Below are positions 29,609-52,632 of a DNA stretch of 56,197 nt, in pieces (the first letter of the stretch is position 1; the number at the start of each line of letters is the position of its first letter). Position numbers and translations under genes: made by a program. The notes beneath the pieces were generated by a model, which did not search any database, had not been told where the DNA came from, and worked only from the letters and a program-made list of their open reading frames with translations. The stretch comes from a virus (Duplodnaviria; Caudoviricetes), in IMG/VR virus record IMGVR_UViG_3300041809_000302, positions 1 to 56,197 of that record; one strand, written 5' to 3'.

Positions 29609-29620
29609 AATGAACAACTT

Positions 29621-32632: not shown

Positions 32633-33078
32633 TGAGCGCATATCCCAATTTCGATCACGGCATCATGTCTTACTTGCTTCCACAGGACCAGGCTCGTCTG
32701 ATCGGCCCCACAGAACAGATCCCTGCCGCGCTAGAAGTGGGATTTGAGCAGCTTGGACATCTGGATAGGGAGTGGGTGTGGGTAGTCGAGAACGGAGGAG
32801 TCATTCACGGTGTTCTGCTCGCCTGCCCTTGCCATGGATGTGCAGTGATCTGGCGAATCTCTTTAGATCCATCTTTGAACAATATCGCCATTATCAGGCT
32901 TCTGAGGCGTTTCCTGAGGGACGTAAGAGAAAGGGGGATGGTGGGCCTATTGACTCTGATCGACCCGTTTAAACCCTCCCAGGCTCGTTTCCAGGGCATG
33001 CTGGAGAAGGTTGGCGGGAAACCGTTTGGAACGACCTATACTTTGATGGCGGCTCCCATACCTAAGGAGGGAATCTGA
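32632..33078 (+). CDS. GNAT-like tail-assembly protein
   Basis: WVWVVENGGVIHGVL; position between nozzle and ejection genes. Confidence 0.55.
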   Translation: MSAYPNFDHGIMSYLLPQDQARLIGPTEQIPAALEVGFEQLGHLDREWVWVVENGGVIHGVLLACPCHGCAVIWRISLDPSLNNIAIIRLLRRFLRDVRERGMVGLLTLIDPFKPSQARFQGMLEKVGGKPFGTTYTLMAAPIPKEGI

Positions 33079-33590
33079 TGCCTGATATTGGATTGCCTCT
33101 CATTGTCTCGCTCATCAGCGCCGGGGTAGGCGGAGTCAGCACAGGCGTCGGCCTGTATGAGCAGAGTCAGGCACCAAGAACTCCTCAAGCAGGGTTTGCC
33201 CCTCCGGCAGCCCCGCTGACAGCAGGACAGAATGCCGGTCAGTCCGCGGCAGTGGGACAGCAACTTCCTAATTTGCAAGCTCTTACCGGAGGTTCGTTGT
33301 CTCCGGAATATGCAGCCCAGTTCGGAGCGGGTGGCGCCGGAGTATCGAACAATCCCCAAGCAACTGGCAACATTCAACAGGCAATCAACAGTTTCTTTGG
33401 CTTAGCTCCGGTTGGATCATCTGGTTTAACCCAGAATTCGATAGCCCAGCCAAGTGGCGGGCCGGGGATACTCGATCTGTTGCAGAGGCCTAATTCCGGG
33501 TCGTCTCCGCTAGCGTCCGGGGGAGGCTTGCCAAGCTGGGTACAATCAGTATTAGGCGGGAACAATTTTCAGGGGCTTCAACAGGGGTAA
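33078..33590 (+). CDS. Internal virion/ejection protein
   Basis: Hydrophobic Gly/Ala N-terminus, Gln-rich. Confidence 0.65.
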   Translation: MPDIGLPLIVSLISAGVGGVSTGVGLYEQSQAPRTPQAGFAPPAAPLTAGQNAGQSAAVGQQLPNLQALTGGSLSPEYAAQFGAGGAGVSNNPQATGNIQQAINSFFGLAPVGSSGLTQNSIAQPSGGPGILDLLQRPNSGSSPLASGGGLPSWVQSVLGGNNFQGLQQG

Positions 33591-33593
33591 CTT

Positions 33594-34112
33594 ATGGACG
33601 GACTTGGCAGTTTAGTTCCACTGATCACAGGCGCTTCGGCAGGGGCGGGCACGTTGGGGAATATACTGACCGATGAAAAGCGGAATGCATACACGAACTT
33701 TGTGATGAATTTGCTTAAAAATCCGCAGCAACTGGCTGCCGCCATCTCCAAAATCCAGCAGCCGCTGAATCAGGGCTTGACGCAGGCAGTAGGAAACCAA
33801 GTTCAGGGCAGTCTCGCAGAACGCGGGCTCGCGCAAGCGCCGGGAACCTTTGCCGCCAGTCTCTCCCAAGGTCTTGCCCCGTTCTACCAACAGAATCAGC
33901 AGGTAGCGGAAAATGCGTTGCTCAGTTCTCTCGGTTTACCGGCGGGAGCGTTCGGACAGCCGCAGAACACGTCAGGCAGTATGCAAATGTTCCTTAACTC
34001 ATTGAAGAAACCAAGCACCGGAACCTGGTGGAATAACGTGCCGGATTACAGTAGCAGCAGCGGCGGTTTAATAAATGACCCGTCTACTGGCGGGGATTTC
34101 GGGAGCGTATAA
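33594..34112 (+). CDS. Internal virion/ejection protein
   Basis: Gly/Ala N-terminus, LAERGL motif, Gln-rich. Confidence 0.65.
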   Translation: MDGLGSLVPLITGASAGAGTLGNILTDEKRNAYTNFVMNLLKNPQQLAAAISKIQQPLNQGLTQAVGNQVQGSLAERGLAQAPGTFAASLSQGLAPFYQQNQQVAENALLSSLGLPAGAFGQPQNTSGSMQMFLNSLKKPSTGTWWNNVPDYSSSSGGLINDPSTGGDFGSV

Positions 34113-34113
34113 C

Positions 34114-35403
34114 GTGGGCGCTTGGCTTCAATCCGTGTTGTCCAATATTGGACGCGCCGGCAGCGACGTGCAGGAAGCGAAAGAGCGCAACCTCGCCCAG
34201 AAGAATCAGCAAGCGCAACAGCAGTTGAAACTACAGGAGTTCCAGTCGCAGTTGCAGGAATTGCAACAGCGCCTCCAGACCGGTAAGGCTCCCCAATTAA
34301 CAGGATCTTATACCGGAGCCGACGGCAAGCGCTACGATGCCATGCGTGATCCATTATCCGGGAAGATCACGTATCAGGTGTCCGAAGCTCCTCCGGAACA
34401 GAAGGGAGTCTTCAAGCCACTGCTCACAGAAAAAGGAGACTACGTTCTCTATAACGATGTAACCAAAGAGACAAAGCCGTTAGAAGTAAACGGACAGCAG
34501 GTTAAGGGATTCCCGAAGGGAAAGAATGGCCCACTCATCATCGATACCAAACCGGCCGGAGTCATTCGGAATGGACAGCCCGTAGTCCCAACTGATCCCG
34601 ATTGGACTGATGCAGATGCAGTGAAATTGGCAAGCTATCTCAAGACCTATGGGGAGGCAGAGGAGCAAAAGAACGCCCGCATCAAGCTGGCTTCTACGTC
34701 CCGAGTCGAAGCCTACATGAAGACTAGGATGTATGGTGCCATGGATGCTGGAACTGGAGCACTCGTCTACGTTACTCCCAGCCAGATCGTACAAAGTCCG
34801 GGGAAGTACGCTCCTGCTGGAGCAGCTGTTTCAGCCAAGACACGCACCGGCATCTTCCAAGATATGGATGTAGCCCAAGGCTTCCTGAATGAAGCAATCG
34901 CCAAACTTCCGGACAAGGCATTCGATCCAGGCGCTCGCGCCCAGATCGCCGGAGCTTTGCGATCGTCTGATCCGTCTTCTGCGTGGCACGAGTTCCTGAG
35001 TTCGAGCATAGCAACCACCTTGGACGATTCCCAAGTGGAATACGTGACCGCGCTCATTAACATGCAGGAATCAGCCCTTGCTCTCAGAAGCATCGCTGGC
35101 ATGGGTCAAGGGTCTGACAAGATGCGGGATGCAATCACGAAAATGCTTCCCGGCGGCGGTACTCCATCAAAGTCTTATGCTATCCGCCAGATGAAGCTGT
35201 TCAAGGCGGAAGTGGACGCTCTCAGAACGACAGTTCCGATGATTGGAGAGCCGGGACAAGGTGGAGGTGTGACTGCACCACAACCAGGGACGGGAACGCC
35301 TCCACCAGATGGCAAAGTTCATTTCACTGAAGGAAGTAAAAGTTGGGATATACCACAAAGTATGGTGAACGATTTTAAGAAAGAACATCCAAATGCCCGA
35401 TAA
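34114..35403 (+). CDS. DNA transfer/ejection protein
   Basis: Gln-rich coiled coil, helical C-terminal part; start at GTG 34114 (or ATG 34075). Confidence 0.65.
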   Translation: MGAWLQSVLSNIGRAGSDVQEAKERNLAQKNQQAQQQLKLQEFQSQLQELQQRLQTGKAPQLTGSYTGADGKRYDAMRDPLSGKITYQVSEAPPEQKGVFKPLLTEKGDYVLYNDVTKETKPLEVNGQQVKGFPKGKNGPLIIDTKPAGVIRNGQPVVPTDPDWTDADAVKLASYLKTYGEAEEQKNARIKLASTSRVEAYMKTRMYGAMDAGTGALVYVTPSQIVQSPGKYAPAGAAVSAKTRTGIFQDMDVAQGFLNEAIAKLPDKAFDPGARAQIAGALRSSDPSSAWHEFLSSSIATTLDDSQVEYVTALINMQESALALRSIAGMGQGSDKMRDAITKMLPGGGTPSKSYAIRQMKLFKAEVDALRTTVPMIGEPGQGGGVTAPQPGTGTPPPDGKVHFTEGSKSWDIPQSMVNDFKKEHPNAR

Positions 35404-36700
35404 ATGGGATAGGTTTGCAACGAAGCCGACAAAGACTGACGCAGACAAGTGGGATAGGTTTGCCTCTCAGCCGGAACTCCCGTTTTCTACGCGACGTGCT
35501 CCCGGTATGCCTCTGACTGCATCGGTTCCGAAGCCGTATATGGACCGTTTGCTGGACTACCTCAGTGAAGGCGTGGAAGGGATGACGAAAGCACCGGGGC
35601 AGTTATCAGCGAGAACGCGAGAACTCTATGAGGCAGGCGGAAAAAAAGGCGGAGTAACTGGTGCTCTAAAGAGTGCAACCGCCCCCTATTTTGCAGAAGG
35701 TGAAGCGTTGAAAGGTTTGCTCATGTCTGCGCTCGGTGTTTCAACTGTTGGCGATTTGTTTGGACGGGGACTTGGTTCCCGACTGGCGAGACATGAAGAC
35801 CCGGCCAAGGTCGAAAGTGACGCTGCTTTGGCGCTTGGCGGGTATATGGCTGGTGGCCCAAAAGAGACGAGTGCTGGGGAAGTATCGGTCGGGGACGCAG
35901 CACGACAGATTACCGATGCCGTGAATCCGCTTCCAAAGCAGATGGCCTCATTCCAGAGAAGCCTTGGGGAGCATTTGGACAAGATCATCACATTCGCAAA
36001 GTCGAATGGCATTGATCTCGATTCGATTGAAGGGATCGGAAAAGCGATGAAAGGTAGCGGAGACTGGATCAGGAACCACTACTACAACGACATGCTCGGT
36101 CCAGTGAAAAATCGACAGGTTTCTATCGCCGGAACGATTAAAGGCTACTCCGGTGAGACAGCTACTCCGTCCACTGCAACTCTTGGGCAGTTGGATGCTC
36201 GGTTGTCGCAGGTTAATGCAGAACTTGACCCCGCCTATTCCAAGGGTGGGAGGGCAGGAGAAGCGGCAGTTAAGTCAAAAACCGAACTGAACGCCGAAGC
36301 CGCTGGCCTTCGTACGCAACTCTATAAAGGGATTGCGGACGCAACCGGCCTGAGTCCAGAAGAAGTGGCGAAGACTCGTGGATCGTTTGGAGCACTCGAT
36401 TCTCTAGCTGAGAAAACAAACATGGCCGCTGCCAAGGAACGGTTCTCCGCTAATCGGGCAGCTCGGGCACCAGTGACAGTAAACCCGTTGTCGATGTCTG
36501 GGAATAAGCAGTTCATTGCCGATCAAGCGGTTAACAAGTTGCGCGGCGATGTCGTTGGGAAGCAGCTTCGAAACGCGACATCGAAGGTTAAAGTGAAACC
36601 ATACCAGTTGCCGCGAGCCAAGAATCTTGTGCCGCCGCCGCAAAGCGCAAGTCACCCGTTCTGGCAAGACCCACGCGAATCATTTGAGAGGAACCCATGA
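35393..36700 (+). CDS. DNA transfer/ejection protein
   Basis: Duplicated DKWDRFA N-terminal motif; Ala/Gly-rich helical protein. Confidence 0.65.
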   Translation: MPDKWDRFATKPTKTDADKWDRFASQPELPFSTRRAPGMPLTASVPKPYMDRLLDYLSEGVEGMTKAPGQLSARTRELYEAGGKKGGVTGALKSATAPYFAEGEALKGLLMSALGVSTVGDLFGRGLGSRLARHEDPAKVESDAALALGGYMAGGPKETSAGEVSVGDAARQITDAVNPLPKQMASFQRSLGEHLDKIITFAKSNGIDLDSIEGIGKAMKGSGDWIRNHYYNDMLGPVKNRQVSIAGTIKGYSGETATPSTATLGQLDARLSQVNAELDPAYSKGGRAGEAAVKSKTELNAEAAGLRTQLYKGIADATGLSPEEVAKTRGSFGALDSLAEKTNMAAAKERFSANRAARAPVTVNPLSMSGNKQFIADQAVNKLRGDVVGKQLRNATSKVKVKPYQLPRAKNLVPPPQSASHPFWQDPRESFERNP

Positions 36701-36983: not shown

Positions 36984-36984
36984 G

Positions 36985-37278
36985 ATGCCCTGGAATTTAT
37001 TGCAGACCACGCTCGGTTCGGCGGCAACTCAACTGGCCCCGCCGGCAAACGCAACCTCCCAAGTCCTGTGCAGGCAGGTCATTATCCAGAATAATGCCAC
37101 CCATACGATGCGTCTCGGAGACTCTTCGGTAACGTCGTCCAAGGGAATCTACCTTGCAGTAGGTCCGGGCGGAGGATCATTTAACACGGGACCGTCAACG
37201 GTCTACAACAGTTATTTAAGTGACTTCTGGGTAGTTGGAACCAGTGGAGATACAGTCGATATTTTTTACAATACATGA
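36985..37278 (+). CDS. Small beta-sandwich virion protein
   Basis: AGGAGG SD; VIIQNN...LGDS.V...GI.L motif. Confidence 0.7.
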   Translation: MPWNLLQTTLGSAATQLAPPANATSQVLCRQVIIQNNATHTMRLGDSSVTSSKGIYLAVGPGGGSFNTGPSTVYNSYLSDFWVVGTSGDTVDIFYNT

Positions 37279-37312
37279 TAGTGAATTTTTGTAGTACGTA
37301 AAGTCGTTTCTA

Positions 37313-39538
37313 ATGGCTAACAACACCATACTCGCGTCAGACAACTTTGCCTCCGGCTCTCTCGCTGCCGGATGGTCACTCGCGGGATACGCTACGGCGA
37401 TGACTGCCATAACGGCGAGTGCTCCATATTACGCGGAGCCAGTAGCCGTTAACACTAACTTTTACGGACAGATTTGGACCGGCCTAACGTGGCCAAACGA
37501 CCAAACTTCTGAGGTTACTCTAGGCAATTTTGATACCACCCACGCACAGTGTTATATGTGGTTACGTCAGACCGGTACCGCCGCCTCACCTTCGGGGTAC
37601 ATTTTATTGCTATTCAACACTCAAGCCGTCGTGTACAAAGTTACGGCTGCTGCCACAACGGCTATATCTACCACCACTGGCCTTACATTCGCTGCCGGCG
37701 ATGTATGGGCGTTCTCCGCAGCCGGTTCATGCCTAACAGCAACACAAAACGGCAACCGAGTTGCGTGCATAGGTGACGCTACCTACACAAGTGGTACACC
37801 CGGTTTTATTTTGGGGATAGATTCCCTAGCGGTGACCAATTGCCAGATTGCATCCTGGCGGGGTTACAGCGCCGTACAGCAAGACGGCATCTGGCAGAAG
37901 CAGGGAATAGTTCTAGCACCTAATGCAACTGATTTAAGTGGGATCGGGGCGTACGAAGGATGTTGCATTTACGACGGCAACCCGCAACTACTAGCTGGCC
38001 CCAATGTTTACAAGCTGTGGTTCAGCGGAGGGGCTTCAGGCAGTTACAATACGTTCTATGCCGAATCGCCCGACTTGGTAAACTGGACACGCCAAGCAAC
38101 GGCGGTCCTATCTGGGTACGTCACACCGGGCATCATCAAAAACGGCAGCACGTACTATATGTACTGCCAAGCACAAAACCAGCAAGGAGGGGGCAACATT
38201 GCGTACTACACGTCCCCGGATGGGGTAACATGGACGCAACAGAGCGCGAACGTCTTATCTCTAGGGGGTTCTGGCGCATGGGATGCAGGCTCTATCTACC
38301 CCCTAAAGCCGGTGGCAATCATCAATGGCACTTGGTACGCGCTCTACGGGGCGTGCTCGGCTGCCGAACTGAGTGCGGGCTACCCCTTTAAAATAGGTCT
38401 TGCAACATCGACAGACGGCGCGGGGGCAGTATGGACAAAATATGCTAGTAACCCGGTGCTCAAAAGTCCCAATCCAACGGGGCAAGCAATATACATTTTC
38501 CCTTGCGTGGCTCAGGTAAACGGCACCTACTATATTTGGTTTGTGAGCGGCCCCAGCGCACCGCAGAATACGGCGACCTCCAGGGCTCTCGATCCGGACG
38601 AAACCGTTCGATACTCTACCACCGATTTCGTGCACTGGGCTGGACCGGTTGGAAGCATACACCACAGCCAAGTATTTGAAGCTGTTAACACCCCAATTAA
38701 CAACACCGAGCAAGTAGGAGGCAACGGGGCGATTGCTATATTCAACATAAACGGTAACGCCACCATGCTTTACTGTTTGTCCCAAGGTGACGGGGTAACA
38801 CCGGCTATTGCACAGTACGCCATCGCCGTTGCACCGGCACCAATCGCAGCTATTGTCACTGCGAACGAAGATGCGGTACAGCAGACCAAAACAGATGGGT
38901 TCACAAGCGGAGTCGGGCCACTTAGTGCTAACTGGACAACGCTCTCAGAGAACAATGCCCCAAAGATAGTTTCTGGCAACCTCGCGGAACCCTCCAGCAC
39001 CGACGGTGGGACCTCAGCAGCGGTGTTTACCGGAGCCTCTTTCACCACGAGTCAGTACGCGGAAATCACTTTGTCCGCGCTAGCGAGTGGTGGTAAAGCC
39101 TCCCCCATGGTTCTAGCTACGGTCGGAACAGGAACAAACTACCACTGCACATTGGCGGGTGCAGCCGGTTCGCAGAGCTTTCAAGCACAACTCATACGCA
39201 CGTCTACGGCAATTGGTCCGGTTCTGGGTATCACCCCCGAAGTGGGGGATGTAATTCGTCTGTCAGTAGTGCAAGGTACGTCAGGCCCGGTACTGTCGAT
39301 GTTCCAAAATGGGGCGATGATCTTTCAGTACGTGGACGAGAGTGCGAGCGCGCTGACCACAGGAAGTCCCGGTATCATCCAGAGCGAAACAAGCGGGGCA
39401 GGTTCGCAAATCAGCCTCTTTGCTGCCGGCAACGCAAACGTAATTCCTACGTACGGCGGAAGCGGGAACAGTGGTCCGGGCGTTGAGTATGGCGTCAACT
39501 CATTGGGAAGCGTGGGGACTTATGTCATCAATGGCTAA
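37313..39538 (+). CDS. Putative virion glycoside hydrolase: five-bladed beta-propeller (GH43/32/130-like) between two lectin-like repeats
   Basis: YAESPDLVNWT, YYTSPDGVTWT, GLATS.DG..WTKY.SNPVL, STTDFVHW blades. Confidence 0.7.
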   Translation: MANNTILASDNFASGSLAAGWSLAGYATAMTAITASAPYYAEPVAVNTNFYGQIWTGLTWPNDQTSEVTLGNFDTTHAQCYMWLRQTGTAASPSGYILLLFNTQAVVYKVTAAATTAISTTTGLTFAAGDVWAFSAAGSCLTATQNGNRVACIGDATYTSGTPGFILGIDSLAVTNCQIASWRGYSAVQQDGIWQKQGIVLAPNATDLSGIGAYEGCCIYDGNPQLLAGPNVYKLWFSGGASGSYNTFYAESPDLVNWTRQATAVLSGYVTPGIIKNGSTYYMYCQAQNQQGGGNIAYYTSPDGVTWTQQSANVLSLGGSGAWDAGSIYPLKPVAIINGTWYALYGACSAAELSAGYPFKIGLATSTDGAGAVWTKYASNPVLKSPNPTGQAIYIFPCVAQVNGTYYIWFVSGPSAPQNTATSRALDPDETVRYSTTDFVHWAGPVGSIHHSQVFEAVNTPINNTEQVGGNGAIAIFNINGNATMLYCLSQGDGVTPAIAQYAIAVAPAPIAAIVTANEDAVQQTKTDGFTSGVGPLSANWTTLSENNAPKIVSGNLAEPSSTDGGTSAAVFTGASFTTSQYAEITLSALASGGKASPMVLATVGTGTNYHCTLAGAAGSQSFQAQLIRTSTAIGPVLGITPEVGDVIRLSVVQGTSGPVLSMFQNGAMIFQYVDESASALTTGSPGIIQSETSGAGSQISLFAAGNANVIPTYGGSGNSGPGVEYGVNSLGSVGTYVING

Positions 39539-42500
39539 ATGGCTGGCACTCTCGATACTGCTTACAGTTTCAATCGCTTGGGGTCAGTCCATCATCGTAA
39601 CTGGGACCGTGGTTTCGCCATCAAATCAGCCATACTCCGGCGGCAGCGGAGTGGTACAACTGGTTCCAGGGAATGTCCAGTGGCTCGTCAACAACACAAA
39701 CCCGGTTCCAACCCCGATCACGATTTCAAGCCTTGACTCTGCCGGCCACTTCTCGGTTACGCTTACCAATACGGCCCTAATCCAGCCAGCGCAACTTGAT
39801 CCTGAATGGCAGTTCAGTTTTTGCAGCCAGTCGATTCTTGGGCAGTCTCCTGTCTGTTTCACGATGACTCCGCTGTCTCTGACCTCATCTCAGGACATCA
39901 GTTCCATAATCGTTACTCAATCCCTGCCTCTTCCTACGTCTGGAGGCGGAACATCGGTTGCCTTGCAAACCAATAGCATTCCAAACGCTTCACAAGTTCT
40001 GTTGAACCTGATTGCCGGAACGGGTATTTCCCTGTTTAACACTGGCGGAAGTGTAACGGTTGATGCGGCAGTTTCGGGCATTACTACAGGTGGTTTCCTG
40101 TCGTTTACCGGGACTACTCTAGGACTGAGCACGAGTTGCACCAACGGTCAGGCTCCGATATGGAATAGCTTGACTTCATCATGGGCTTGCGGGAACGTCG
40201 GCGGAGTGGGGACGCTGACCGGAATCACCACGGGAAACGGATCGGGATTGTCCGGCGGAGGCACCAGTGGCAGCCTGAATCTCTCTCTCATCACCAGTTG
40301 CGCGGTGACTCAAGGGCTTCTGTGGAACGGAAGCGCATGGGCTTGCGGGAACGCCGGCGGAGGACTAGCTGATCCCGGAGCAAACGGAATTATCAAGCGC
40401 ACCGCGCTCAACGTGACCGCTCCCGCTGGCTATGCGGACGTGGTTGCTTTGTGGGCTTCCTGCACGTCTGGGTTTCTGGAATTCAACGGAACATGCTCAA
40501 GCGGCACGGGAGCGATCCAAGTAAACGGCGCGCCGCTCATTTCTACGGCCACAGTCAACTTCGAGAATAGCGCGGCAACGAACGGCTTGACCTTGACTTT
40601 CACCAACCCGACAGTCGGCAATGTGCAGTTAGGCTTTACCGGCACCCTGGCGAATGCTGGCTTGGCAAATTCCGCCATAACGATCGGTGGTACGTCGGTC
40701 GCTCTCGGGGGAACGACCGTATCTTTTCCAAGTCCAGGTCCAATCGGCGGGACAACGCCGGCATCTGGTTCATTCACGACGATCAACGCCTCGGGAAACA
40801 TCACCGGGAACCTGATCGGCAACGCCTCGACTGCGACGACAGCGACGAACGCGGGTGGTCTTTCAAACTGCACCACTTCCACGCCCGGTTCTCTGTGTTA
40901 CTGGAATGGTACACAGTGGCAGGTACTGCCAGGGAACACGTCTAGTTCATTATTTCTCAATGAGACTTCCGCTGGTGTTCCATCATGGGCGACTCCTTCA
41001 GGCGCAGGCAACGTCTCAACCGGAGGGACGAATACGTCCGGGTATCTGGCTACTTGGACGAGCAATACAACGTTAACCTCAGTTCTCTCTTTACCTGCTG
41101 CCAACTTCCCGACTCTTACCGGGGATGTTTCAAACACTGGTCTTGCGACTACGGTTGTAGCCGTTAACGGAGGGTCGGTTCCGGCATCTGCTAAACTGCT
41201 TGGATCAAACAGCAGTTCCCAGCCGATTGCTGCAGCACTTCCAAGCGCTGATCTTTATGTTGGCAATGGTTCCAATCTTCCAGCGGCTGTGGCGGCATCA
41301 GGGGATGTGTCTTTAGCGAATACGGGAGCGTTCACGGTTACGGGAGCACAAGGAAAAGCGCTTCCTGCTTTGAGTTCTTTCACGAGCAATCCATACCTTA
41401 CCTATACTGGAAGCGCATGGGCAGCGGCAAACCCGTTTGCCAACCCGACATTCACCGGCACAATTACCATCGCAGGATTTGGAGGCGTAATTCAGTGCAT
41501 GCAGGCGACTGCTTCCAACCAAGTTGTCGGGACAGGCTCGCCTTGCGGCAGCGGTGGAGGCGGCGGCAACGTTACAGGGCCGGGATCATCTGTCGTCGGA
41601 GACGTTGCTTACTTCAACAACACTGGAGGGTCACTATTGGCCGATGCTGGATACCCCTATAACGCGATCCCAAACGCGGATTTAGCTCACTCTACTGTTG
41701 GAGTAGCAGGCACGAGCAATCAGATTACGAGCAGCGGTTCTCCTGTCTCGCTTGGCGGTTCGACAACTCTTGCTTTCGCCAACCCGATGACGTTGACCCC
41801 GGCGATCCTAACTGCGGGGACTACTTCCGTGGCGTCACTCTCCATGCCAAGCGGCGTAGCGCCTACTTCTCCGGCTAGTGGCAATATATGGAATTTATCT
41901 GGCATCCTGCAATTCTACGATGGCACTAATACCAATTCCCTGACTACGATTCAAGCGGCTCCAACCACGCTACATCTGCCGGAATTCAGTGGAACGGCTG
42001 GACTGCTAGCAGATTCCGGCATAGCTGTCGCCAATGTGGTCACAGCCGCAGCGAACTTCACTAGTGGCGATCTTGTAAAGGCCGCAGCCTCTACCAGAGC
42101 GGCCTCAGACTCCGGTATAGCTGCCGGGGACGTTCTGACGTACCACACTCCAGCCACAGGAATTGCACGGACAACAAGTGGCAGTCAGGCAGTGGTTAGC
42201 ACGGAGTTGAGCGGAGACGCGACTACTAGCGGATCAAACGCCGTGACCGTGGTCAAGGTTAATGGGTTGGCGGTTCCAGCCTCTAAGACCATCGTGGGCA
42301 CGAATTCTTCCAGTCAGTTTGTGGATGCTTCAAGCGCCACGCTCGCAAACAACACGACTGGAACGGCGGCTAATCTCTCAGGAACTCCAGCCCTTCCGAA
42401 TGGCACGACGGCAACCACTCAAGTGACCGGAGACAGTTCGACAAAGATAGCGACGGACGCCTTTGTCATCAATGAAGTCGCTGCTGGTGGTCCAGGTTCT

Positions 42501-44225
42501 GGAACAGTGAACGATCTGGCATTCTGGAATACTGGCACTACTCTAGGAAGCATTGGAAGCCAAGTTACCGGTCAGATACTCGTAGCAGTAAATGGATCGT
42601 ATCCGACTTTCTCTTCTTCTAGCATCATCGACAGTGCGAACTCACCAGTAACATCGGCATCCTACACACTTGCCTGCGATACGTCTACGACAGTTGTTGA
42701 CCGCAGCGCAATCGTACGTTTCCAGTCTGGAGCGACCACGCCTGTCGTTCCTCTCTCCACAGCCACTGGATGCTCAGGAATGGTGGTTAAGGTCATTGAC
42801 GAAAGCGCAGGGATTCTTGTGTTCTCTCGCACCTCACCTGACACTTTCAGCGTCTACAACGGCTCTACGGCCACAACCGGAGCAACATCCTTTACTTTGA
42901 CCAACGGAGAATATGCAACTGTGGACCAAGCGGCATCTGGGATTTGGGAGGTCAGTATTGTTCCCAGCGTCGGTGGAACCGGGACGGTCACGAGTGTTGG
43001 CATGACAGTTCCAACTGGATTGGCAATCGGAGGTCAGCCGATCACGACTAGCGGCACGTTAGCCCTAACTTGGAGCGGTACGATTCCAGTGGCTCAGATT
43101 CCCACAGCCATACCAATTGGCAACGTCGGAAGTGCGGGCCTGAGCGGAACGTCACCAGTGACCATCTCGGCAGCGGGAGCCATTGGATGCGCGAACTGTG
43201 CGGTCATCAATGGCGTAAATACATTCACCGCTGCGGGAACTATTGATCTCGCCGCAAGTACGGCAGCGGCAGCGTTGAAGATTCCCTCAGTAGCGAGTTT
43301 CACGTCAAACGGAACGTCCTCGATAGGGTCGGACGCAACGGCAAAGATTACGCATGTACCCACAAACGGTGCGGATTCTAAAGTTCTGGCAACAACTGCC
43401 ACGGACACGACCACAACCCACGCCGTATTTGCGACTGGTACGGCTGGACTGTATACCTCGCGAGCGATTGCGGCAGGCGACCTGCCTAGCGTCCCCTTAA
43501 CCGCCCTTGCCAGCCAAGCTGCGGACACGATGGTTGCCAACATGACGGCCAGCGGTGCGGTGCCTACCGCGGTAGCGATCCCGACAACAGCCCACGGAGT
43601 CTGGTTGGGCGAAGGCACGGCAACTGCTCCAGGGATCACGGCAGCGGGAACGGCAGGCCAGTATTTACGCTCTGGTGGCAGTGGGGCAGACGGTGCTTAC
43701 GCCACCTTCCCCGACACTAAAGTGTTCCCGGCTGCGAATTGCGTTTCAAGCGTTGGCGGATCGGCATGGGATACGACTCTGACAGCCGCTTGCGCAGGAG
43801 AATCCGTGAACGTCGGCGGATGGTTGCCATTCGCGGATGCTTCAGTCGCGCAGTTCAAGTTTCATTTGCCCGCAGATTGGGATACCACCGAGCCGTACAT
43901 CAACCTCGCCTTCGACACAGCAACCAATACCAGCGGGACGATGATCTTCCAAGTCCAAACTGCTTGCATCAAGAATGACGGTTCCACCTCGGACAATCCA
44001 GCGCTTAACACAGCTCAAGTATTCTCTACCGCAACAGCAGCAAACGCCAATCGCATTTTTAGCGAGAACCTGCAATTCAACGCGGTTACCTCTGGCAACA
44101 GTTGCGTAGCGAACGGTACGATGATCGTCAAAATCACGCGCAACACGGACACGGCGGCGGCAGTCGTTGGAGTTACCGAGGCAGATATAACGATTGGTAG
44201 GCTGTTGACATTGCAGGCGAATTAA
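39531..44225 (+). CDS. Long tail-fibre-like protein (1564 aa) with N-terminal signal peptide
   Basis: MAKWLALSILLTVSIAWG|QS; fibre motifs LSGDAT, LTGDV, GTVTSVG..PITTSGTL, TKIATDAFV, GNASTAT. Confidence 0.75.
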   Translation: MAKWLALSILLTVSIAWGQSIIVTGTVVSPSNQPYSGGSGVVQLVPGNVQWLVNNTNPVPTPITISSLDSAGHFSVTLTNTALIQPAQLDPEWQFSFCSQSILGQSPVCFTMTPLSLTSSQDISSIIVTQSLPLPTSGGGTSVALQTNSIPNASQVLLNLIAGTGISLFNTGGSVTVDAAVSGITTGGFLSFTGTTLGLSTSCTNGQAPIWNSLTSSWACGNVGGVGTLTGITTGNGSGLSGGGTSGSLNLSLITSCAVTQGLLWNGSAWACGNAGGGLADPGANGIIKRTALNVTAPAGYADVVALWASCTSGFLEFNGTCSSGTGAIQVNGAPLISTATVNFENSAATNGLTLTFTNPTVGNVQLGFTGTLANAGLANSAITIGGTSVALGGTTVSFPSPGPIGGTTPASGSFTTINASGNITGNLIGNASTATTATNAGGLSNCTTSTPGSLCYWNGTQWQVLPGNTSSSLFLNETSAGVPSWATPSGAGNVSTGGTNTSGYLATWTSNTTLTSVLSLPAANFPTLTGDVSNTGLATTVVAVNGGSVPASAKLLGSNSSSQPIAAALPSADLYVGNGSNLPAAVAASGDVSLANTGAFTVTGAQGKALPALSSFTSNPYLTYTGSAWAAANPFANPTFTGTITIAGFGGVIQCMQATASNQVVGTGSPCGSGGGGGNVTGPGSSVVGDVAYFNNTGGSLLADAGYPYNAIPNADLAHSTVGVAGTSNQITSSGSPVSLGGSTTLAFANPMTLTPAILTAGTTSVASLSMPSGVAPTSPASGNIWNLSGILQFYDGTNTNSLTTIQAAPTTLHLPEFSGTAGLLADSGIAVANVVTAAANFTSGDLVKAAASTRAASDSGIAAGDVLTYHTPATGIARTTSGSQAVVSTELSGDATTSGSNAVTVVKVNGLAVPASKTIVGTNSSSQFVDASSATLANNTTGTAANLSGTPALPNGTTATTQVTGDSSTKIATDAFVINEVAAGGPGSGTVNDLAFWNTGTTLGSIGSQVTGQILVAVNGSYPTFSSSSIIDSANSPVTSASYTLACDTSTTVVDRSAIVRFQSGATTPVVPLSTATGCSGMVVKVIDESAGILVFSRTSPDTFSVYNGSTATTGATSFTLTNGEYATVDQAASGIWEVSIVPSVGGTGTVTSVGMTVPTGLAIGGQPITTSGTLALTWSGTIPVAQIPTAIPIGNVGSAGLSGTSPVTISAAGAIGCANCAVINGVNTFTAAGTIDLAASTAAAALKIPSVASFTSNGTSSIGSDATAKITHVPTNGADSKVLATTATDTTTTHAVFATGTAGLYTSRAIAAGDLPSVPLTALASQAADTMVANMTASGAVPTAVAIPTTAHGVWLGEGTATAPGITAAGTAGQYLRSGGSGADGAYATFPDTKVFPAANCVSSVGGSAWDTTLTAACAGESVNVGGWLPFADASVAQFKFHLPADWDTTEPYINLAFDTATNTSGTMIFQVQTACIKNDGSTSDNPALNTAQVFSTATAANANRIFSENLQFNAVTSGNSCVANGTMIVKITRNTDTAAAVVGVTEADITIGRLLTLQAN

Positions 44226-44250
44226 TATGAAACGCTTATCCGAGGGTCCA

Positions 44251-45060
44251 ATGAAACACGTCATTATATGGCTTGTGCTATCGGCGTGTTCTTGGGCGAG
44301 TGTTACCCTGGAACAGATTTCATGTCCCGGTAATGCTGATTGCGCTACACCCGTAGCAACTTGTACCGTAGCTTTTACATTGGACACTGTCAATGCCGGT
44401 GATCTTGTGGTGGGCATGGAGGTTGCTCAAGAATCTAGTTTATCGTTCCCGCAAACCTTCCAGATACCTACCGATAGCTACGGCAACACTTACGCTCTTG
44501 CTGGCGGAACCGCTAACCAGATGAATCTTGATTTGGGCGGCGATGGTCCTTACAGTAGCGCAGAATTTTATGGTGTAATCACGACCGGTCATGCGGCAAA
44601 TTTCAATATAACGATGACTGTTAGTGGTGGTAATTTAACTTCAGACTGGAACGTATGCATGTACGACTTCCGGGGAATTTCGCCGGTACTTACAACCACT
44701 AACGTCCTAGATGGCTATAACTCTCATTGCGTTACGAATCCCTGTTCGGGAGCACAAGGAGCAGACGCAGCTTATACCAGTTCTTCTCCCATCACCACAA
44801 CTAAATCTGGGGATATCATGGTGGCCCAGCGAGCGTGGGGAACCTGCACTGCCAATGCGGGAACGGGATGGACCGTAGAGGACACTTTAGGCACTGATTC
44901 CGAATACATTATCCAAGGGGCGGCGGGAACCTATGACGCTCTTTATGCGGATTGTGGAACTACGCCATTCCACGACACCTACAGTGTCGAAGATGTTGCA
45001 TTTCTAACCGTTACTCCGGGTACTCCGGGCATCTCCAATCAATTCCCGAGGGTCAATTGA
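44251..45060 (+). CDS. Secreted Cys-rich beta protein (signal peptide or LSAC lipobox)
   Basis: GAGGG SD; MKHVIIWLVLSACSWA|S; 8 Cys after the signal. Confidence 0.75.
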   Translation: MKHVIIWLVLSACSWASVTLEQISCPGNADCATPVATCTVAFTLDTVNAGDLVVGMEVAQESSLSFPQTFQIPTDSYGNTYALAGGTANQMNLDLGGDGPYSSAEFYGVITTGHAANFNITMTVSGGNLTSDWNVCMYDFRGISPVLTTTNVLDGYNSHCVTNPCSGAQGADAAYTSSSPITTTKSGDIMVAQRAWGTCTANAGTGWTVEDTLGTDSEYIIQGAAGTYDALYADCGTTPFHDTYSVEDVAFLTVTPGTPGISNQFPRVN

Positions 45061-48000
45061 AGCGCTTTTCCCTGATCGCATTTATGCTCTCCGCAACCAT
45101 GGCCTTTGGGTCTGCGACAACGCTTTACGTCGCGCAGTCAGCGGGAACCTTCAGCGGTGGCTCGGCCTGCAATGGGCAGACAGCAGTTTCGCTCGCAACT
45201 GCCAATGGCAGCGGTTTTTGGGGAAGTGGGAGCACTCAGGCTGGACCGGGAACGACGGTCTATCTCTGCGGAGCGCTCACGGCTTCGGCAGGGGCGGTTG
45301 GCCTCAACATCCAGAACAGCGGCACCAGCGGAAGCCCTCTCATTATTTTGTTTGATACCGGAACGACTTTCAAGTCTCCTAACTTTGCCGGATCGGCGCA
45401 AGGCTCTCCATGCTCTTCGTCTTGCGGCGGAATTGAAATCCTGAATCAGTCCTACGTAATCATCGACGGTGGATCGAACGGCATGATGGAGAATACCGCC
45501 GCAGGAAGTTCCACAATCACCTGCCAGAGCGGAAGCGCCTGTACCTATCATGGCGGGACTGTGGCCGTGTGGGTGAAAGGCGCACACAACATCGTCCGCA
45601 ATCTGACGATCCAGCACGTCTACGACAGTTGCGGGGCAACGAATTGTTCGGATACTTCCGGCAGTGACGTGACCTCCGGTATCACTGTGGATACAGGCGA
45701 AGATAACGATCTGATCTGCAACAACTCGATCAGCGACGTAAGTTATGGGTTCAGTTCAGACGCTTCGGGATCGGCTCCGACGCCATCGTCTACGGTCAAT
45801 TGCCAGTCGAACACAATTCCCACGGGCATCTCGGTTTATTGGAATACCTTCAACGACGCCTGCCATCACATTCAGCCAAACGGCTCCGGCTATATCGACA
45901 TCGGGTTCAACTTCATCGGCACGTTTACGAACTGGATTTGGCCCGGCACTGGCAATGGTTGCCATACAGATGGAATCATTCTCTATGGAGATTCGAGCAA
46001 GTTAGTAGGGTATATCCATCACAATGAGTTCTCCGGAGATCTTGGTCTTGGCAGTCCGACGGGAGAAATATACTGCACATATGGTGGCGGTGAAAGCCAA
46101 TGCTACGTTTATCGCAACCTGTTTATCGGAATCGGCAACGACCCAACCTGCTGCCAGGGAATTTCCTTCGCAGTAGACAGCGCTCCTGGGGCCATGGGGC
46201 CATACGACGAATATAACAACACGCTATCCGGTTATCTTTACATGTTCGAGAAGTACGGCGAACTGACCGCCGACACCTTCGACTTCCGTAATAACATCTT
46301 CGTCACCCCGAGCGGTGGCTACCACTACCAAGAGCAGAACGGTGGAGTCTGCACGCATCAGACCATCAATGGTGACCTCTATAACGGCGGCCGAAGTTCT
46401 CCGTGGGGATTATGCGGAGTATTGGTTGGGAGTCTGTCCACTTGGCAATCGGACTGCACTTCTGGTGGCGGAACCCTATGTGATGCCAAGTCTTCAACGA
46501 CAGCGGCAAATCTCAGCGCTGGCTACGTCCCGAATAGTGGTTCACCTGCGATTACTCTTGGCGATAATCTCACAAGCTTAAGCATCCCAACCCTGAACAT
46601 TGGTGCCCCGCAGACCTTCGGCGCTGGTGGGTCATGCGGAACCGGATGTCTAGCAGCGGCGGCGACAGGAAACTGGGATGCGGGGGCGTATCCGTTTGCA
46701 TCTGCATCAGTGGTTCCTCCGACCGTCACCACCACAACTGTCACCAGCATCACGGCCACGAGCGCATCTTCTGGAGGCACGGTCACATCGAACGGCGGGG
46801 CTAGCGTTACGGCAGAAGGGGTGGCTTATGGCACTTCGCCTAACCCGACATCGCCTTGCACTGGCAGCGGCACCGCTACGCCTTACACAACAACACTTAA
46901 CTCCTTATTGCCAAGCAGACTCTATTACTATCGCGCTTGTGCCACGAACTCAGCGGGAACCGGATACGGCAGTGATCTGTCGTTCACAACCTTGGCCGCT
47001 ACGAGCTGTGCTAATCTTGGGCACACAGCGCAAGGCGGAAGTCTCGGACCTCCTAACTATGGTCAGCTTTGCACTGATTTGAATCTCGACACGCTCGGTT
47101 ACCTTCCCGTACTTCAAACAAATTATGCGGCGGATTACGGGGCCACCGGAGCGGGGATGTGCGATTACAATTCCTTCGGGCAAAAGGTTTGCCGCCTCAC
47201 TGACGCTCTCACGGACCCGAATTATGTCGGAGCAATCTATGCCAACAACAACACAGGAGCGGATCAGGACAATCATATCGCCGGTGACCATTCGAGCGTT
47301 ATCGTGCAGTCAAACTCGGCGGAACGAACCTTCATCATCCTGTACAACACTGCGACAAACACGTGGACCGGATCGCTTGGCTCCCCAGGCGGATGGCCTT
47401 CTGCTACGGGATACAATCCGTACTACATATTATCGAGGAACGTCGCCTACAATCCGCTCAACTCTAAGCAGGTTTATGCACTCTACGTCAACAAAAGCAC
47501 GCCTTCCGCCATCTTGGACTTGATCGACTTCACTAGCTGTGTGTCGAATGGTGCTCCCGCTGCTACCTGCTCTCCCACTGTTACTCAGATAACCGACTTT
47601 GCTCAGGATACCTGCGGAACCGGGACGAAGCTTGTAAACCAATCCCCAACGCAAAGCAACGGCTTTGGCTTCTACCCGACCTACACAACGACGATTCAAA
47701 TCGACAACGCTGGTCAGAACATCACTTGGGGCATGTCGAACAACCAGCCGGCGGTTCCGGGATCTGGTCAAGGTGCTCAGAATACGGGAACGATCATGCT
47801 CTCATGGAGTATTCCTGCCCATGGATGCCGGTACTACAACATCGGCGGAGCGACCTACTGGGGAGTGGGAGCGCAACAGGTTGCTGGCGATTGGGGTCCA
47901 ACCGGGCCAGTGACCATGCAGTATTACACGCCATGGTCTGGGTCAAATAGCTATGCGCTGAACACCTTGATGCAGCCGACCAGCAATAATCCCACGCACC

Positions 48001-49313
48001 TCTACTTCAAAGTCACGACTGCGGGCACGTCTGGATCAAGTCAGCCGAACTGGAGTAGCTCTTGCGCCACTACTTGCACGGACAGTGGGGTGACATGGAC
48101 AAACCAAGGCGCACCTTATTGCAGCACGGATGGTACATACTCAGACGAATGGACGCTGCACTCCATGTTTGTAACACCGAGCAATTGGACGGAGATCGCC
48201 AATGGCGCGGGACAGGGAGCTTGCACCACAGCGGAACTTCAGGGACCCTATAGTTGGCAATCCACCACACTGAACGTTGCGGCTAATACGTTCACCAGCG
48301 GCGGCCACTTTTCCGGTGGCTACTCGCACGTCATGCAGGGCACGAACAGCCCGCAAGGGCAGACCGCGGTCGCTTCTTTCGTTCCGACCCAAATCGGACC
48401 CGCCTACAACACGCTTCAGTCAAGCTACGTCGGCATCTCCAACAGCACCTACCTCGACATGCATTTCACCTGTAACGGGGAGAACATCTACGATTCTATG
48501 CCCTGTTATGTTACGAACACGTCTTACACGACAGGGCACGGTAGCTTGAACCCAGCAACGGTGGGGAATCCGGGATACGATTACGCGAACAACGGCTGCG
48601 GACTCCGCGATCCCATGTCAGCGTGGTCCGGTCCTCCATTCAACTGCGGCAACTTGAATCCCTTCAGCGGTTACGGCGTGAACGAAGTACGTCTCTATCC
48701 GATGGCTGTTCCGATGGGAGGCACGACATCTTGCACTTCAGCTCCATGCGCTGGCACGCAGGCTCCGTTGCGCGTCAGCCCGAATTATCTCGGAGCTAAC
48801 GGCTGGAGCTTTAACTCGCAGAACGCGACGATTGATTCAGGAATCGATAACGCAATGGTTACCGTCACCACTGACATGCTAGGAACGTTTGGGACAATCT
48901 GGAATTCGCAAGTGACCGGATGCGGCGGCAATACTTGCTATCGTCCAGTGCAGGGTGGTCCACCGTGGCAAGCGGGTCACGTTTACAACGCTGGAGACGT
49001 GATTACCTCGCAGACAGTAGCGGTGTCAGCTACCGTTTCAACCGGAACACAAGCATTATATTGCACGTTCTACACCGTGGCTGGAGGAACCAGCGGAACC
49101 CCTACAGAGCCCACTTGGACGAATGGAGGGCACACGGCTTGTTTGGCGAGCGTGACAGACAATGGGGTTACGTGGGTTCCGGTCACCAGCACCAACTATG
49201 GGGCCACGACCTACGCTGGGCTGACGAATGCGCGTACCGACGTGATTGCTATATTTACTGGCAACCCAGCCACAATTAGCGCTCCCTCTGCTCTGATGAT
49301 TGGTGTACCTTAA
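45057..49313 (+). CDS. Large secreted beta-helix/FN3/propeller adhesin or depolymerase (1418 aa)
   Basis: TTG overlapping the previous stop with GAGGG SD; MKRFSLIAFMLSATMAFG|; LYVAQ..G.G..C, HTDGI, SPAI..G, WDAGAY, YYYRACATNSAGTGYG. Confidence 0.8.
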   Translation: MKRFSLIAFMLSATMAFGSATTLYVAQSAGTFSGGSACNGQTAVSLATANGSGFWGSGSTQAGPGTTVYLCGALTASAGAVGLNIQNSGTSGSPLIILFDTGTTFKSPNFAGSAQGSPCSSSCGGIEILNQSYVIIDGGSNGMMENTAAGSSTITCQSGSACTYHGGTVAVWVKGAHNIVRNLTIQHVYDSCGATNCSDTSGSDVTSGITVDTGEDNDLICNNSISDVSYGFSSDASGSAPTPSSTVNCQSNTIPTGISVYWNTFNDACHHIQPNGSGYIDIGFNFIGTFTNWIWPGTGNGCHTDGIILYGDSSKLVGYIHHNEFSGDLGLGSPTGEIYCTYGGGESQCYVYRNLFIGIGNDPTCCQGISFAVDSAPGAMGPYDEYNNTLSGYLYMFEKYGELTADTFDFRNNIFVTPSGGYHYQEQNGGVCTHQTINGDLYNGGRSSPWGLCGVLVGSLSTWQSDCTSGGGTLCDAKSSTTAANLSAGYVPNSGSPAITLGDNLTSLSIPTLNIGAPQTFGAGGSCGTGCLAAAATGNWDAGAYPFASASVVPPTVTTTTVTSITATSASSGGTVTSNGGASVTAEGVAYGTSPNPTSPCTGSGTATPYTTTLNSLLPSRLYYYRACATNSAGTGYGSDLSFTTLAATSCANLGHTAQGGSLGPPNYGQLCTDLNLDTLGYLPVLQTNYAADYGATGAGMCDYNSFGQKVCRLTDALTDPNYVGAIYANNNTGADQDNHIAGDHSSVIVQSNSAERTFIILYNTATNTWTGSLGSPGGWPSATGYNPYYILSRNVAYNPLNSKQVYALYVNKSTPSAILDLIDFTSCVSNGAPAATCSPTVTQITDFAQDTCGTGTKLVNQSPTQSNGFGFYPTYTTTIQIDNAGQNITWGMSNNQPAVPGSGQGAQNTGTIMLSWSIPAHGCRYYNIGGATYWGVGAQQVAGDWGPTGPVTMQYYTPWSGSNSYALNTLMQPTSNNPTHLYFKVTTAGTSGSSQPNWSSSCATTCTDSGVTWTNQGAPYCSTDGTYSDEWTLHSMFVTPSNWTEIANGAGQGACTTAELQGPYSWQSTTLNVAANTFTSGGHFSGGYSHVMQGTNSPQGQTAVASFVPTQIGPAYNTLQSSYVGISNSTYLDMHFTCNGENIYDSMPCYVTNTSYTTGHGSLNPATVGNPGYDYANNGCGLRDPMSAWSGPPFNCGNLNPFSGYGVNEVRLYPMAVPMGGTTSCTSAPCAGTQAPLRVSPNYLGANGWSFNSQNATIDSGIDNAMVTVTTDMLGTFGTIWNSQVTGCGGNTCYRPVQGGPPWQAGHVYNAGDVITSQTVAVSATVSTGTQALYCTFYTVAGGTSGTPTEPTWTNGGHTACLASVTDNGVTWVPVTSTNYGATTYAGLTNARTDVIAIFTGNPATISAPSALMIGVP

Positions 49314-49330
49314 AGCATAAAGGAGACTGT

Positions 49331-50005
49331 ATGCGGAAAATTGCAGTGATTTTAGTCCTGTTAGCCAGTTTCGCTTTTTCGCAGTCGCACCAACCGCTTA
49401 AAGCTAAGATCGTCAGATCAGCTAGTGGCGCGAGCGTGTCACTGACTTGCACTTCTCCGGGAAGCGTGGCTGTTGCTTTCAACTTCTATCGCGGTACGGT
49501 TTCAGGTGGTCCGTACACGATACTCGGAACTAGTCCCATGGTAGCAACGTGCGCCTATACGGATGCTACGGTTTCTCCGGGGACAACGTACTACTACGTG
49601 GCGACGGCGCTTGATATTGCCGTAGGCGCGACCTGTCCAACTGGGCAGACGTGCGAAAGTGGCTATTCCAATCAGGCGACTGCTGTTGTACCATTCCCGC
49701 CTCCTCCTAATCCTCCGACTGGATTGACCGTTGGGACAATCGTGGGAACGAGTGTTCCCCTGGAGTGGGTCCCGCCCGTCCCTCAAACTGGGGTATATGT
49801 TGATTACTATGCAGTCTTTACCTGTAGCGGGAAGTTATGCCCTAATCCCGTTTGGATTTCAAGCGTAAGCATACCGGGATACACCGATACTAGCTGCACC
49901 CCGCGTCCGCGAGTCTGTCGTTATTTCGTAAGGGCACATGACACAGTTGCTGGCCTAAAGGTAGTAACGGCACGCAGCAACATTGCTACGGCGGTTGTCC
50001 AGTAG
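49331..50005 (+). CDS. Secreted protein with two fibronectin type III-like domains
   Basis: AAGGAG SD; MRKIAVILVLLASFAFS|Q; FNFYRGTVSGGPY, YTD..V..GTTYYYV, ES.YSN, PTGL; 8 Cys. Confidence 0.8.
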   Translation: MRKIAVILVLLASFAFSQSHQPLKAKIVRSASGASVSLTCTSPGSVAVAFNFYRGTVSGGPYTILGTSPMVATCAYTDATVSPGTTYYYVATALDIAVGATCPTGQTCESGYSNQATAVVPFPPPPNPPTGLTVGTIVGTSVPLEWVPPVPQTGVYVDYYAVFTCSGKLCPNPVWISSVSIPGYTDTSCTPRPRVCRYFVRAHDTVAGLKVVTARSNIATAVVQ

Positions 50006-50042
50006 AACGGGTTCTGATTGGGTAGGGAAATGTGGTGATCCA

Positions 50043-50294
50043 GTGATCTATGAGAAATTACATCCTTCGGAGATTCGGGCTGCTGATACACTGTGCATGC
50101 TGGCAAAGTATGGCATGAACTGCAAAAGTCAGGACGTTGCCAACGTTTTGGGTATCTCAAAAGCTACTGTCAAGCAGCACTTGAGCCAAGCGATGGAAAA
50201 GACGGGTTTCTTTGATCGAATTAACTTCATACTGGCTTGGCGATGCGAGATCTTTCAGATTGGATTACGGCATTTGGGCATGATACCGAAATAA
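50043..50294 (+). CDS. LuxR-type HTH DNA-binding protein
   Basis: SQDVANVLGISKATVKQHL..AMEKTG..DR. Confidence 0.75.
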   Translation: MIYEKLHPSEIRAADTLCMLAKYGMNCKSQDVANVLGISKATVKQHLSQAMEKTGFFDRINFILAWRCEIFQIGLRHLGMIPK

Positions 50295-50313
50295 CGACCT
50301 GAAAGGGGTACAG

Positions 50314-52630: not shown

Positions 52631-52632
52631 GG

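Follow-up and report, generated by a model that had tools for sequence, protein, structure and literature searches.

Must every part of a tailed phage be folded in the compartment in which its particle is built? Textbook tailed-phage assembly, as we know it, takes place wholly in the reducing cytoplasm, and to our knowledge the fibres of podoviruses carry no signal peptide and fold there as well. The window analysed here, which is the whole 56,197-bp viral contig of IMG/VR record IMGVR_UViG_3300041809_000302, raises this question with four consecutive late genes on the + strand (39531-50005, a span of 10,475 bp or 18.6% of the window; genes 1 to 4 in the following), all of which begin with what reads as an export leader. 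A first-pass annotation, made from the sequence alone, had proposed that these fibre- or adhesin-like proteins are exported, fold oxidatively and join the particle at lysis. The present analysis strongly supports, in silico, the export and oxidative folding of the four proteins, on the evidence of conserved leaders and of even numbers of cysteines (Cys) in the mature proteins, and we consider this part very probable; the full proposal, including the docking of the exported parts to the particle at lysis, we judge to be close to balanced, but slightly on the unlikely side.

Leaders and cysteine parity in the late block

The four open reading frames (ORFs) start where they had been proposed to start, in the ribosome-binding contexts described for them. 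Gene 1 starts with an ATG (39531) that has an 8-nt overlap with the stop of the gene upstream, the ATG of gene 2 (44251) is preceded by CCGAGGGTCCA, the TTG of gene 3 (45057), which overlaps the TGA that ends gene 2, is preceded by CCGAGGGTCAA, and the ATG of gene 4 (49331) is preceded by AAAGGAGACTGT; the initiation contexts of genes 2 and 3 are indeed alike (CCGAGGGTCCAATG at 44240..44253 and CCGAGGGTCAATTG at 45046..45059, both on the + strand). The leaders quoted by the first-pass annotation for genes 1 to 4, MAKWLALSILLTVSIAWG, MKHVIIWLVLSACSWA, MKRFSLIAFMLSATMAFG and MRKIAVILVLLASFAFS, ending before Q, S, S and Q respectively, are all present, as are the putative fibre-shaft motifs LSGDAT, GTVTSV..PITTSGTL and KIATDAFV in the translation of gene 1, and the richness in Cys that it had pointed out is borne out by the mature counts (20, 8, 46 and 8 in genes 1 to 4, and thus 8 in each of the small proteins). 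Each leader has a basic n-region, an h-region of ~7-15 residues and small uncharged residues at -3/-1, as is characteristic of Sec export followed by cleavage by signal peptidase I. Their uncharged runs span 13-15 residues, which is not long enough for a membrane helix.

Leaders were called with a crude custom rule (not SignalP) that requires a basic n-region and a hydrophobic window (9 residues) with a Kyte-Doolittle value of at least 2.2, no acidic residue ahead of it, and small residues at -3/-1. This rule flags 4 of the 60 ORFs in the window, which are exactly genes 1 to 4, all adjacent, and leaves unflagged the structural genes starting at 22414, 24729 and 37313, which had been said to have no signal peptide. 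With alternative starts allowed, 5 of 67 ORFs are flagged, namely genes 1 to 4 and an 84-residue minus-strand ORF at 53143-53397. The call for gene 2 stored in the protein collection is 226 residues long: by subtraction, its start lies 43 residues inside the 269-residue gene, and the leader is lost. Such genes are mis-started by gene callers, and automatic calls may hide leaders of this sort.

IMG/VR contains relatives whose terminases are 69-83% identical to that of the window phage, and three of these were compared with it: G001 (54.6 kb, 96% complete), G006 (56.2 kb, 98% complete) and G007 (53.5 kb, with terminal repeats, 100% complete). In all three, a leader is found on every gene of at least 150 residues that lies after the internal proteins and before the lysis region, in one gene of G007 only from a TTG start behind AAAGGAGG; the four genomes together provide 17 leader-bearing proteins. 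The first-pass annotation had named the absence of conserved signals in related phages as a reason to abandon its proposal: what is found is that the leaders are kept in kind, though not in sequence. In the orthologs of gene 1 the leader is only 28% identical, versus 65% for the mature domain, and the residue after the cut is glutamine (Gln) in 15 of the 17 proteins. A leader that drifts next to a conserved mature part suggests a functional signal peptide rather than a structural helix.

The distribution of Cys provides a second view of the same proteins. Cleavage sites were placed by eye, from the -3/-1 rule and the conserved +1 residue, before Cys were counted. The number of Cys in the mature protein, which ranges from 0 to 48, is even in all 17 leader-bearing proteins (one-sided binomial p = 7.6e-6); with the leader included it is even in only 11, and each of the six odd proteins has exactly one leader Cys. 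By comparison, the leaderless core proteins that contain any Cys (n = 25, counted by hand) are divided into 12 even and 13 odd, and the median Cys content is 1.99% in the leader-bearing proteins versus 0.41% in 46 leaderless core proteins. An even number of mature Cys is predicted by full disulfide pairing after removal of the leader: at the level of sequence, the parity points to leader cleavage and disulfide bonding, and it is the strongest evidence presented here for folding outside the cytoplasm. Cys parity is also a cheap screen for export among metagenomic phage proteins.

The gene 1 domain family and its companions

Only the first ~140 residues of gene 1 are common to its relatives (the N-terminal 141 residues are 65% identical), while the rest differs; Q19, C98 and C109 do not vary among the first five gene 1-type sequences. 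This N-domain is the sole part of the block behind the internal core that is common to all four genomes. A profile search of 1.84 billion representatives returned 710 proteins with E <= 1e-3 and 45 with E <= 1e-30. The proteins of this family are 81 to 2385 residues long, with the domain nearly always at the extreme N-terminus, and the lengths after it go from under 100 to 2385 residues. Among 153 members examined, a leader stands immediately ahead of the domain in 133 and behind an over-long ORF call in 3; 4 more are hydrophobic at this position but fail the -3/-1 rule through alignment shifts, and 13 are truncated at the N-terminus; none of the 140 members with a complete N-terminus is leaderless. 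Gln occupies +1 in 141 of 144 members, the Cys pair is found in 105 of 153, and mature Cys are even in 123 of 135 representatives.

The model of the N-domain (~125 residues) is a seven-strand beta-sandwich of moderate confidence (predicted local distance difference test, pLDDT, of 62). A fold search of the PDB with this model gave nothing at E <= 1e-3, the best match (E 7e-3) being weak and transthyretin/prealbumin-like; a viral structure library yielded weak matches to assorted phage proteins, 5 of them at E <= 1e-3, one of which is named as a tail fibre, with query template modelling (TM) scores of only 0.35-0.43. Pfam matched 2 of 62 family members, one with a pectate-lyase-like domain and one with DUF4082, and PHROGs matched the same 62 members to seven families, each hit by a single member: tailspike (two families), and tail fibre, virion structural, minor tail, pre-neck appendage and unnamed (one family each). 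The products of genes 1 to 4, searched whole and as nine pieces against Pfam and PHROGs, gave nothing above cut-off, and when genes 1 and 3 were compared with PDB sequences, no match fell below E 0.03.

The family of gene 1 appears to be carried by phages. Among 50,697 GenBank phage records none matches the N-domain; the 10 family clusters that were looked up all come from metagenomes, and their contigs are no longer than 57 kb, and in 185,579 species genomes the family has a single locus. This sole cellular match lies on a 3.1-kb contig of a Candidatus Sulfotelmatobacter metagenome-assembled genome (MAG; G010), which could be a binned phage fragment; a search of the MAG for a terminase of the window type found none, and the family occurs in one of the 401 genomes searched in the phylum of this MAG. 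The earlier warning that the homologs might be mainly chromosomal holds only for the N-terminal enzyme domain of gene 3, with its relatives in polysaccharide clusters, and not for the gene 1 family.

The match to this MAG contig, together with the GC content (56.5%, versus 49-56% for the phage), makes the Acidobacteriota, which are diderm, the candidate host phylum, and probably the correct one. Of 51 leader-like ORFs in ~390 kb of the MAG, 21 place Gln right behind a -3/-1 site, while the background frequency of Gln is 5.6%: Gln after the cut is common in the leaders of the MAG, and the leaders of the phage match the local style. This 'Q-rule' is called exclusive to Bacteroidetes in the available excerpt of one paper (PMC10653852). 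A search of the MAG, which is incomplete, did not find the plant-type glutaminyl cyclase family PF05096.

The N-domain also occurs, at ~30% identity, in complete ~35-kb elements with terminal repeats (for example G411, 35,046 bp), as 2-4 tandem copies that always have leaders. No terminase, portal, adaptor or nozzle is recognisable in these elements, and Pfam and PHROGs searches with 20 of their proteins identified an endolysin and two proteins resembling a transglycosylase and a transglutaminase, respectively, and nothing else. All 5 of the 5 records keep an ATPase with a GQTQRAGKTT Walker motif.

For gene 2 there is a single sequence relative (P0155), which is 77% identical; the Atlas clusters nearest to gene 2 are 92-100% viral, by feature search only. 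The LSAC motif in the leader of gene 2 could have been taken as the lipobox of a lipoprotein processed by signal peptidase II, but the leader of P0155 is different and contains no Cys, and we thus assign gene 2 to the signal peptidase I type. A lipobox-like VAAC in a gene of G001 is likewise explained by a Q-type cut that is common to the homolog in G006.

Residues ~19-500 of gene 3 model as a glycanase-like, right-handed beta-helix (predicted TM score 0.73), a fold shared with the GH136, GH28 and PL6 beta-helix enzymes. The best PDB fold match is a GH136 lacto-N-biosidase (E 9.8e-6; GH136 also at 3.8e-4), followed by lower matches to GH28, PL6, chondroitinase B and phage tailspikes. In a metagenome scan, relatives of gene 3 (best-segment identity 26-42%) were present at 47 loci, of which 40 have a leader; 4 of the other 7 end at a contig edge. 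In all five loci inspected, the relative is a cellular protein of ~520-630 residues in a polysaccharide-synthesis cluster, with neighbours that are GT1/GT4 glycosyltransferases, UDP-glucose dehydrogenase, a Wzx-type flippase or DegT aminotransferase. The leader-bearing ~520-residue proteins of these clusters are 26-42% identical to the first ~500 residues of gene 3 over the best segment, and 27-43% in the alignment, leader included; gene 3 differs from them in being encoded by a phage and in having ~900 extra residues, which comprise an Fn3-like segment and a large C-terminal part whose last 355 residues are 29% identical to the counterpart in G001. Judging from its sequence, gene 3 looks like a periplasmic polysaccharide enzyme that was captured together with its leader and extended by ~900 residues.

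Gene 4 has only a weak match to Pfam fn3 (E 0.036, below cut-off), and Atlas structure matches to Fn3-bearing proteins with TM scores of 0.46-0.62. In two phage contigs, L013 and L014, the gene 4 module forms the C-terminus of a leader-bearing glycosidase-like protein of 656-667 residues encoded between terminase and portal, and is followed by a helix-turn-helix (HTH) gene similar to the one behind gene 4 (L013 8678-11355, L014 8555-11262; read from the neighbouring ORFs, with homology unscored). The double Fn3 module and the HTH gene (window 49331-50294) travel together in otherwise different phage contigs. No orthologs of genes 2 and 4 were found in G001, G006 and G007.

Docking to the particle or a role outside it

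In the explanation that we favour, host Sec would export the four proteins, and signal peptidase I would trim them, mostly exposing an N-terminal Gln; all their Cys would be in disulfides after folding in the periplasm of a diderm host. Gene 1 would be the conserved fibre of this phage group, composed of leader, ~125-residue beta-sandwich and exchangeable distal part; gene 3 would be a beta-helix enzyme acting on polysaccharides, with its origin in a periplasmic enzyme from the polysaccharide clusters of bacteria; for genes 2 and 4 the role would be that of small disulfide-rich accessory proteins, and the four would jointly constitute a set for envelope recognition and polysaccharide cutting. 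The head, adaptor, nozzle and ejection proteins, which are leaderless, would be built in the cytoplasm. Because of this, the exported parts would meet the particle only once the holin opens the inner membrane, at which point the gene 1-type fibre would dock onto it. There is a precedent for late addition in vitro, where purified tailspikes complete P22 heads.

Synteny and modular architecture make joining of the particle plausible. We favour gene 1 as a virion fibre on account of its position in the gene order, of its design with a conserved head and a variable body, and of the late blocks of G006 and G007, in which no ORF of at least 250 residues is leaderless except the adaptor, the nozzle and the internal proteins. 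The prediction of a complex between the adaptor (36-row alignment) and the mature N-domain (24 rows) spoke neither for nor against binding. That fibres which are secreted and, probably with an N-terminal pyroglutamate, disulfide-folded in the periplasm attach to cytoplasmic particles just after holin opening throughout a large group of uncultured soil podophages appears possible, with the scales tipped somewhat against it. If fibres are indeed secreted in this way, leader and N-domain would constitute a portable 'periplasmic fibre' cassette exchanged with the unrelated ~35-kb elements.

These features can be compared with those of known systems. Gene 1 resembles podovirus fibres and tailspikes (T7 gp17, P22 gp9) in its location after the internal core and before the lysis genes, which we take to correspond to that of T7 gene 17, and in having a conserved N-terminal module followed by an exchangeable distal part; some members of its family also have bodies of pectate-lyase or tailspike type. 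It is unlike them in that all complete members of the family carry a leader and the majority an even number of Cys, and no similarity of gene 1 to known fibre anchors appears in Pfam, PHROGs or PDB sequence searches. Llp of T5 and Cor of T1/phi80 are small receptor-blocking phage lipoproteins encoded beside fibre genes: the window proteins are likewise encoded in the fibre region and very probably exported, but they are 224-1564 residues long, and the LSAC motif is not conserved. As described in the available excerpt of Caulton et al. (2024, PMC10769870), the MAT fibres of Bdellovibrio bacteriovorus have a signal peptide, then a beta-rich, conserved domain ~130 residues long, then a variable fibre, which is the same layout as that of gene 1, although the comparison is one of layout only. 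According to the same excerpt, MATs are unlike gene 1 in being encoded on the chromosome of a predatory bacterium, which displays them at its own cell surface, and 13 of 21 have an S74 chaperone-protease domain, whereas gene 1 has no Pfam family. Sec signal peptides that expose an N-terminal Gln are reported for phages of Porphyromonas gingivalis (Matrishin et al. 2023, PMC10367356); in the available portion of that paper they belong to capsid proteins, to spanins and to five genes of unknown function and are read as host-modifying, with no mention of fibres. In our literature searches, no paper on exported fibres of tailed phages came up.

Several observations weigh against docking. The ~35-kb elements share no other detectable protein with the window phage, and in particular no adaptor or nozzle, and the occurrence of the N-domain in such unrelated elements is odd for a domain meant to dock on a specific tail. 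An anchor domain is missing from gene 3, whose enzyme fold begins right behind the leader and whose relatives are the cellular cluster proteins of the five inspected loci; the gene 4 module is elsewhere part of the glycosidase-like protein encoded between terminase and portal. The three large leaderless accessory proteins of the window (22414, 24729 and 37313) could be its virion fibres, and the N-terminal half of the nozzle, which varies between relatives, could itself bind the host. The N-domain model is moderate and without a PDB match at the threshold used, and the leader calls rest on a custom rule, with cleavage sites placed by eye. For genes 3 and 4, acting on the cell envelope or sitting at it is at least as likely. 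In an alternative reading, the four proteins would be exported and disulfide-bonded but never part of the particle, as free or envelope-attached factors. They might cut exopolysaccharide or O-antigen, from the periplasm or after release, and thus clear the way for progeny; or, as binders, they might mask the receptor of the infected cell and of its debris, or destroy it (superinfection exclusion). The N-domain would then anchor or retain the proteins in the envelope, in the manner of the ~130-residue domain of the Bdellovibrio MAT fibres. The kinship of the gene 3 enzyme domain with leader-bearing cluster proteins, the place of the gene 4 module within a leader-bearing protein of other phages, the sharing of the N-domain with unrelated elements, the architecture of MATs (as given in the excerpt of PMC10769870), and the existence in the window of its own leaderless fibre candidates all agree with such a role. 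It fits less well with G006 and G007, whose late blocks contain no leaderless fibre candidate, yet a tailed phage needs a receptor-binding protein; moreover, a conserved head combined with distal parts that are exchangeable and with tandem paralogs is what virion receptor-binding proteins show, and Sec alone reaches only the periplasm, with no signal for surface export being seen. Taken by itself a purely non-virion role is rather doubtful, but it is nearly as likely as the full two-compartment reading.

An intermediate case would be that the gene 1-type fibre alone joins the particle, and that genes 2, 3 and 4 encode free proteins, either periplasmic or released, acting as enzyme, chaperone-like helper or binder. 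This agrees with the conservation of the gene 1 N-domain alone across the four genomes, with the missing anchor domain in gene 3 and with the restriction of genes 2 and 4 to the window phage among the four, but it shares every weakness of the docking step, and we regard it as unlikely. Finally, the hydrophobic N-termini might be uncleaved membrane anchors, or a structural helix of fibre proteins that remain in the cytoplasm, a view for which one can invoke the custom rule behind the leader calls and the signal-anchor-release segments that some phage endolysins use. It is very improbable considering that the uncharged runs are 12-18 residues long in 16 of the 17 proteins, that small residues occupy -3/-1 and Gln most of the +1 positions, that Cys parity is perfect only without the leader, and that the leader sequence is unconserved, unlike a structural element.

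Should the favoured reading, with export followed by docking, be correct, it would represent a two-compartment assembly route of which we found no description for tailed phages: disulfide-stabilised fibres would be possible, the timing of lysis would be part of assembly, and host Sec, signal peptidase and Dsb would become host-range factors. Cytoplasmic expression of such fibres or depolymerases would probably fail.

Genome context and further observations

The window phage is an uncultured soil phage of the short-tailed type, with the order adaptor, nozzle, internal proteins, fibre block, and a region of small membrane proteins, which we take to be the order of T7. The adaptor, the nozzle and the five internal proteins (28373..36700) are the cytoplasmic tail and ejection core ahead of the fibre block. 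The coordinates of these features and of genes 1 to 4 are listed in Table 1.

Table 1. Features of the window phage genome, in window coordinates (blank cells: nothing recorded).
Feature	Coordinates	Strand	Description or basis
Large terminase	13311-15071		PHROGs/Pfam
Portal	16121-17857		PHROGs/Pfam
Major head protein	20563-21630		PHROGs/Pfam
SU10-type adaptor	28373-29608	+	Pfam SU10_adaptor, 28.8 bits (cut-off 27); orthologs in G001, G006, G007
Nozzle, 1003 residues	29621-32632	+	Named from position and conservation; orthologs in G001, G006, G007
Five small or medium internal (ejection) proteins	32632-36700	+	0-3 Cys each; Cys-poor, as expected for internal/ejection proteins; orthologs in G001, G006, G007
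Leaderless gene just 5' of gene 1, 741 residues	37313..39538	+	11 Cys; phage-specific, not in G001, G006, G007
Gene 1, 1564 residues	39531..44225	+	Leader, residues 1-18 (39531-39584); N-domain, 19 to ~140 (39585 to ~39950); long variable fibre-like body
Gene 2, 269 residues	44251..45060	+	Leader, residues 1-16; 8 mature Cys; alternative ATG at 44227
Gene 3, 1418 residues	45057..49313	+	Leader, residues 1-18; beta-helix ~19-500, Fn3-like segment, ~700-residue C-terminal part; 46 mature Cys
Gene 4, 224 residues	49331..50005	+	Leader, residues 1-17; two Fn3-like domains; 8 mature Cys
Small HTH gene (sigma-70 region 4 / LuxR-like) after gene 4	49983..50294	+	Pfam

The terminase of the window is only 26% identical to the closest GenBank phage terminase. 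The gene upstream of gene 1 has only weak matches, to Glyco_hydro_32N (E 0.0014) and phrog_2804. No tRNA genes were found in the window, and a promoter and terminator scan of 36000-53000 gave no more sites than shuffled sequences. PHROGs searches with nine leader-bearing proteins of the relatives and with the window gene at 24729-28172 returned a single weak match. In G006, a leader-bearing gene of 561 residues (36743-38428, minus strand; 4 mature Cys) lies between the adaptor and nozzle genes, adjoining both, and has no PHROG match. The terminase ORF of G007 is long, at 937 residues. Of the two contigs with the gene 4 module, L014 has a portal-like gene of 961 residues (11545-14430) and L013 one of 574 residues (11638-13362); the extra part begins with Cys and, from its sequence, looks like an intein-type insertion.

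The first 20 bases of the contig are repeated at 97 and 151 and, near the other end, at 56069, 56093, 56117 and 56141 (window 1-170 and 56068-56197); 15 bases are common to both ends, so that a short tandem repeat runs across the junction of the assembly, which is probably either circular or has terminal redundancy. A 197-residue protein (51213-51806) of the presumed lysis region has a twin-arginine-like TRRGF at its N-terminus followed by a lipobox-like MSAC; it has no Pfam match, and may be a Tat-exported lipoprotein, perhaps a spanin-like component. A glycosyltransferase-sulfotransferase fusion (8643-10001) and a PLOD-type glycosyltransferase (11004-12518) may hint that phage or host components undergo glycan modification; in the PLOD-type protein, the C-terminal half is 42% identical to a 251-residue gene in the structural module of G007. 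The early region encodes an ERF-type recombinase and an Imm5-like homolog of immunity proteins (799-1917 and 2755-3426, minus strand).

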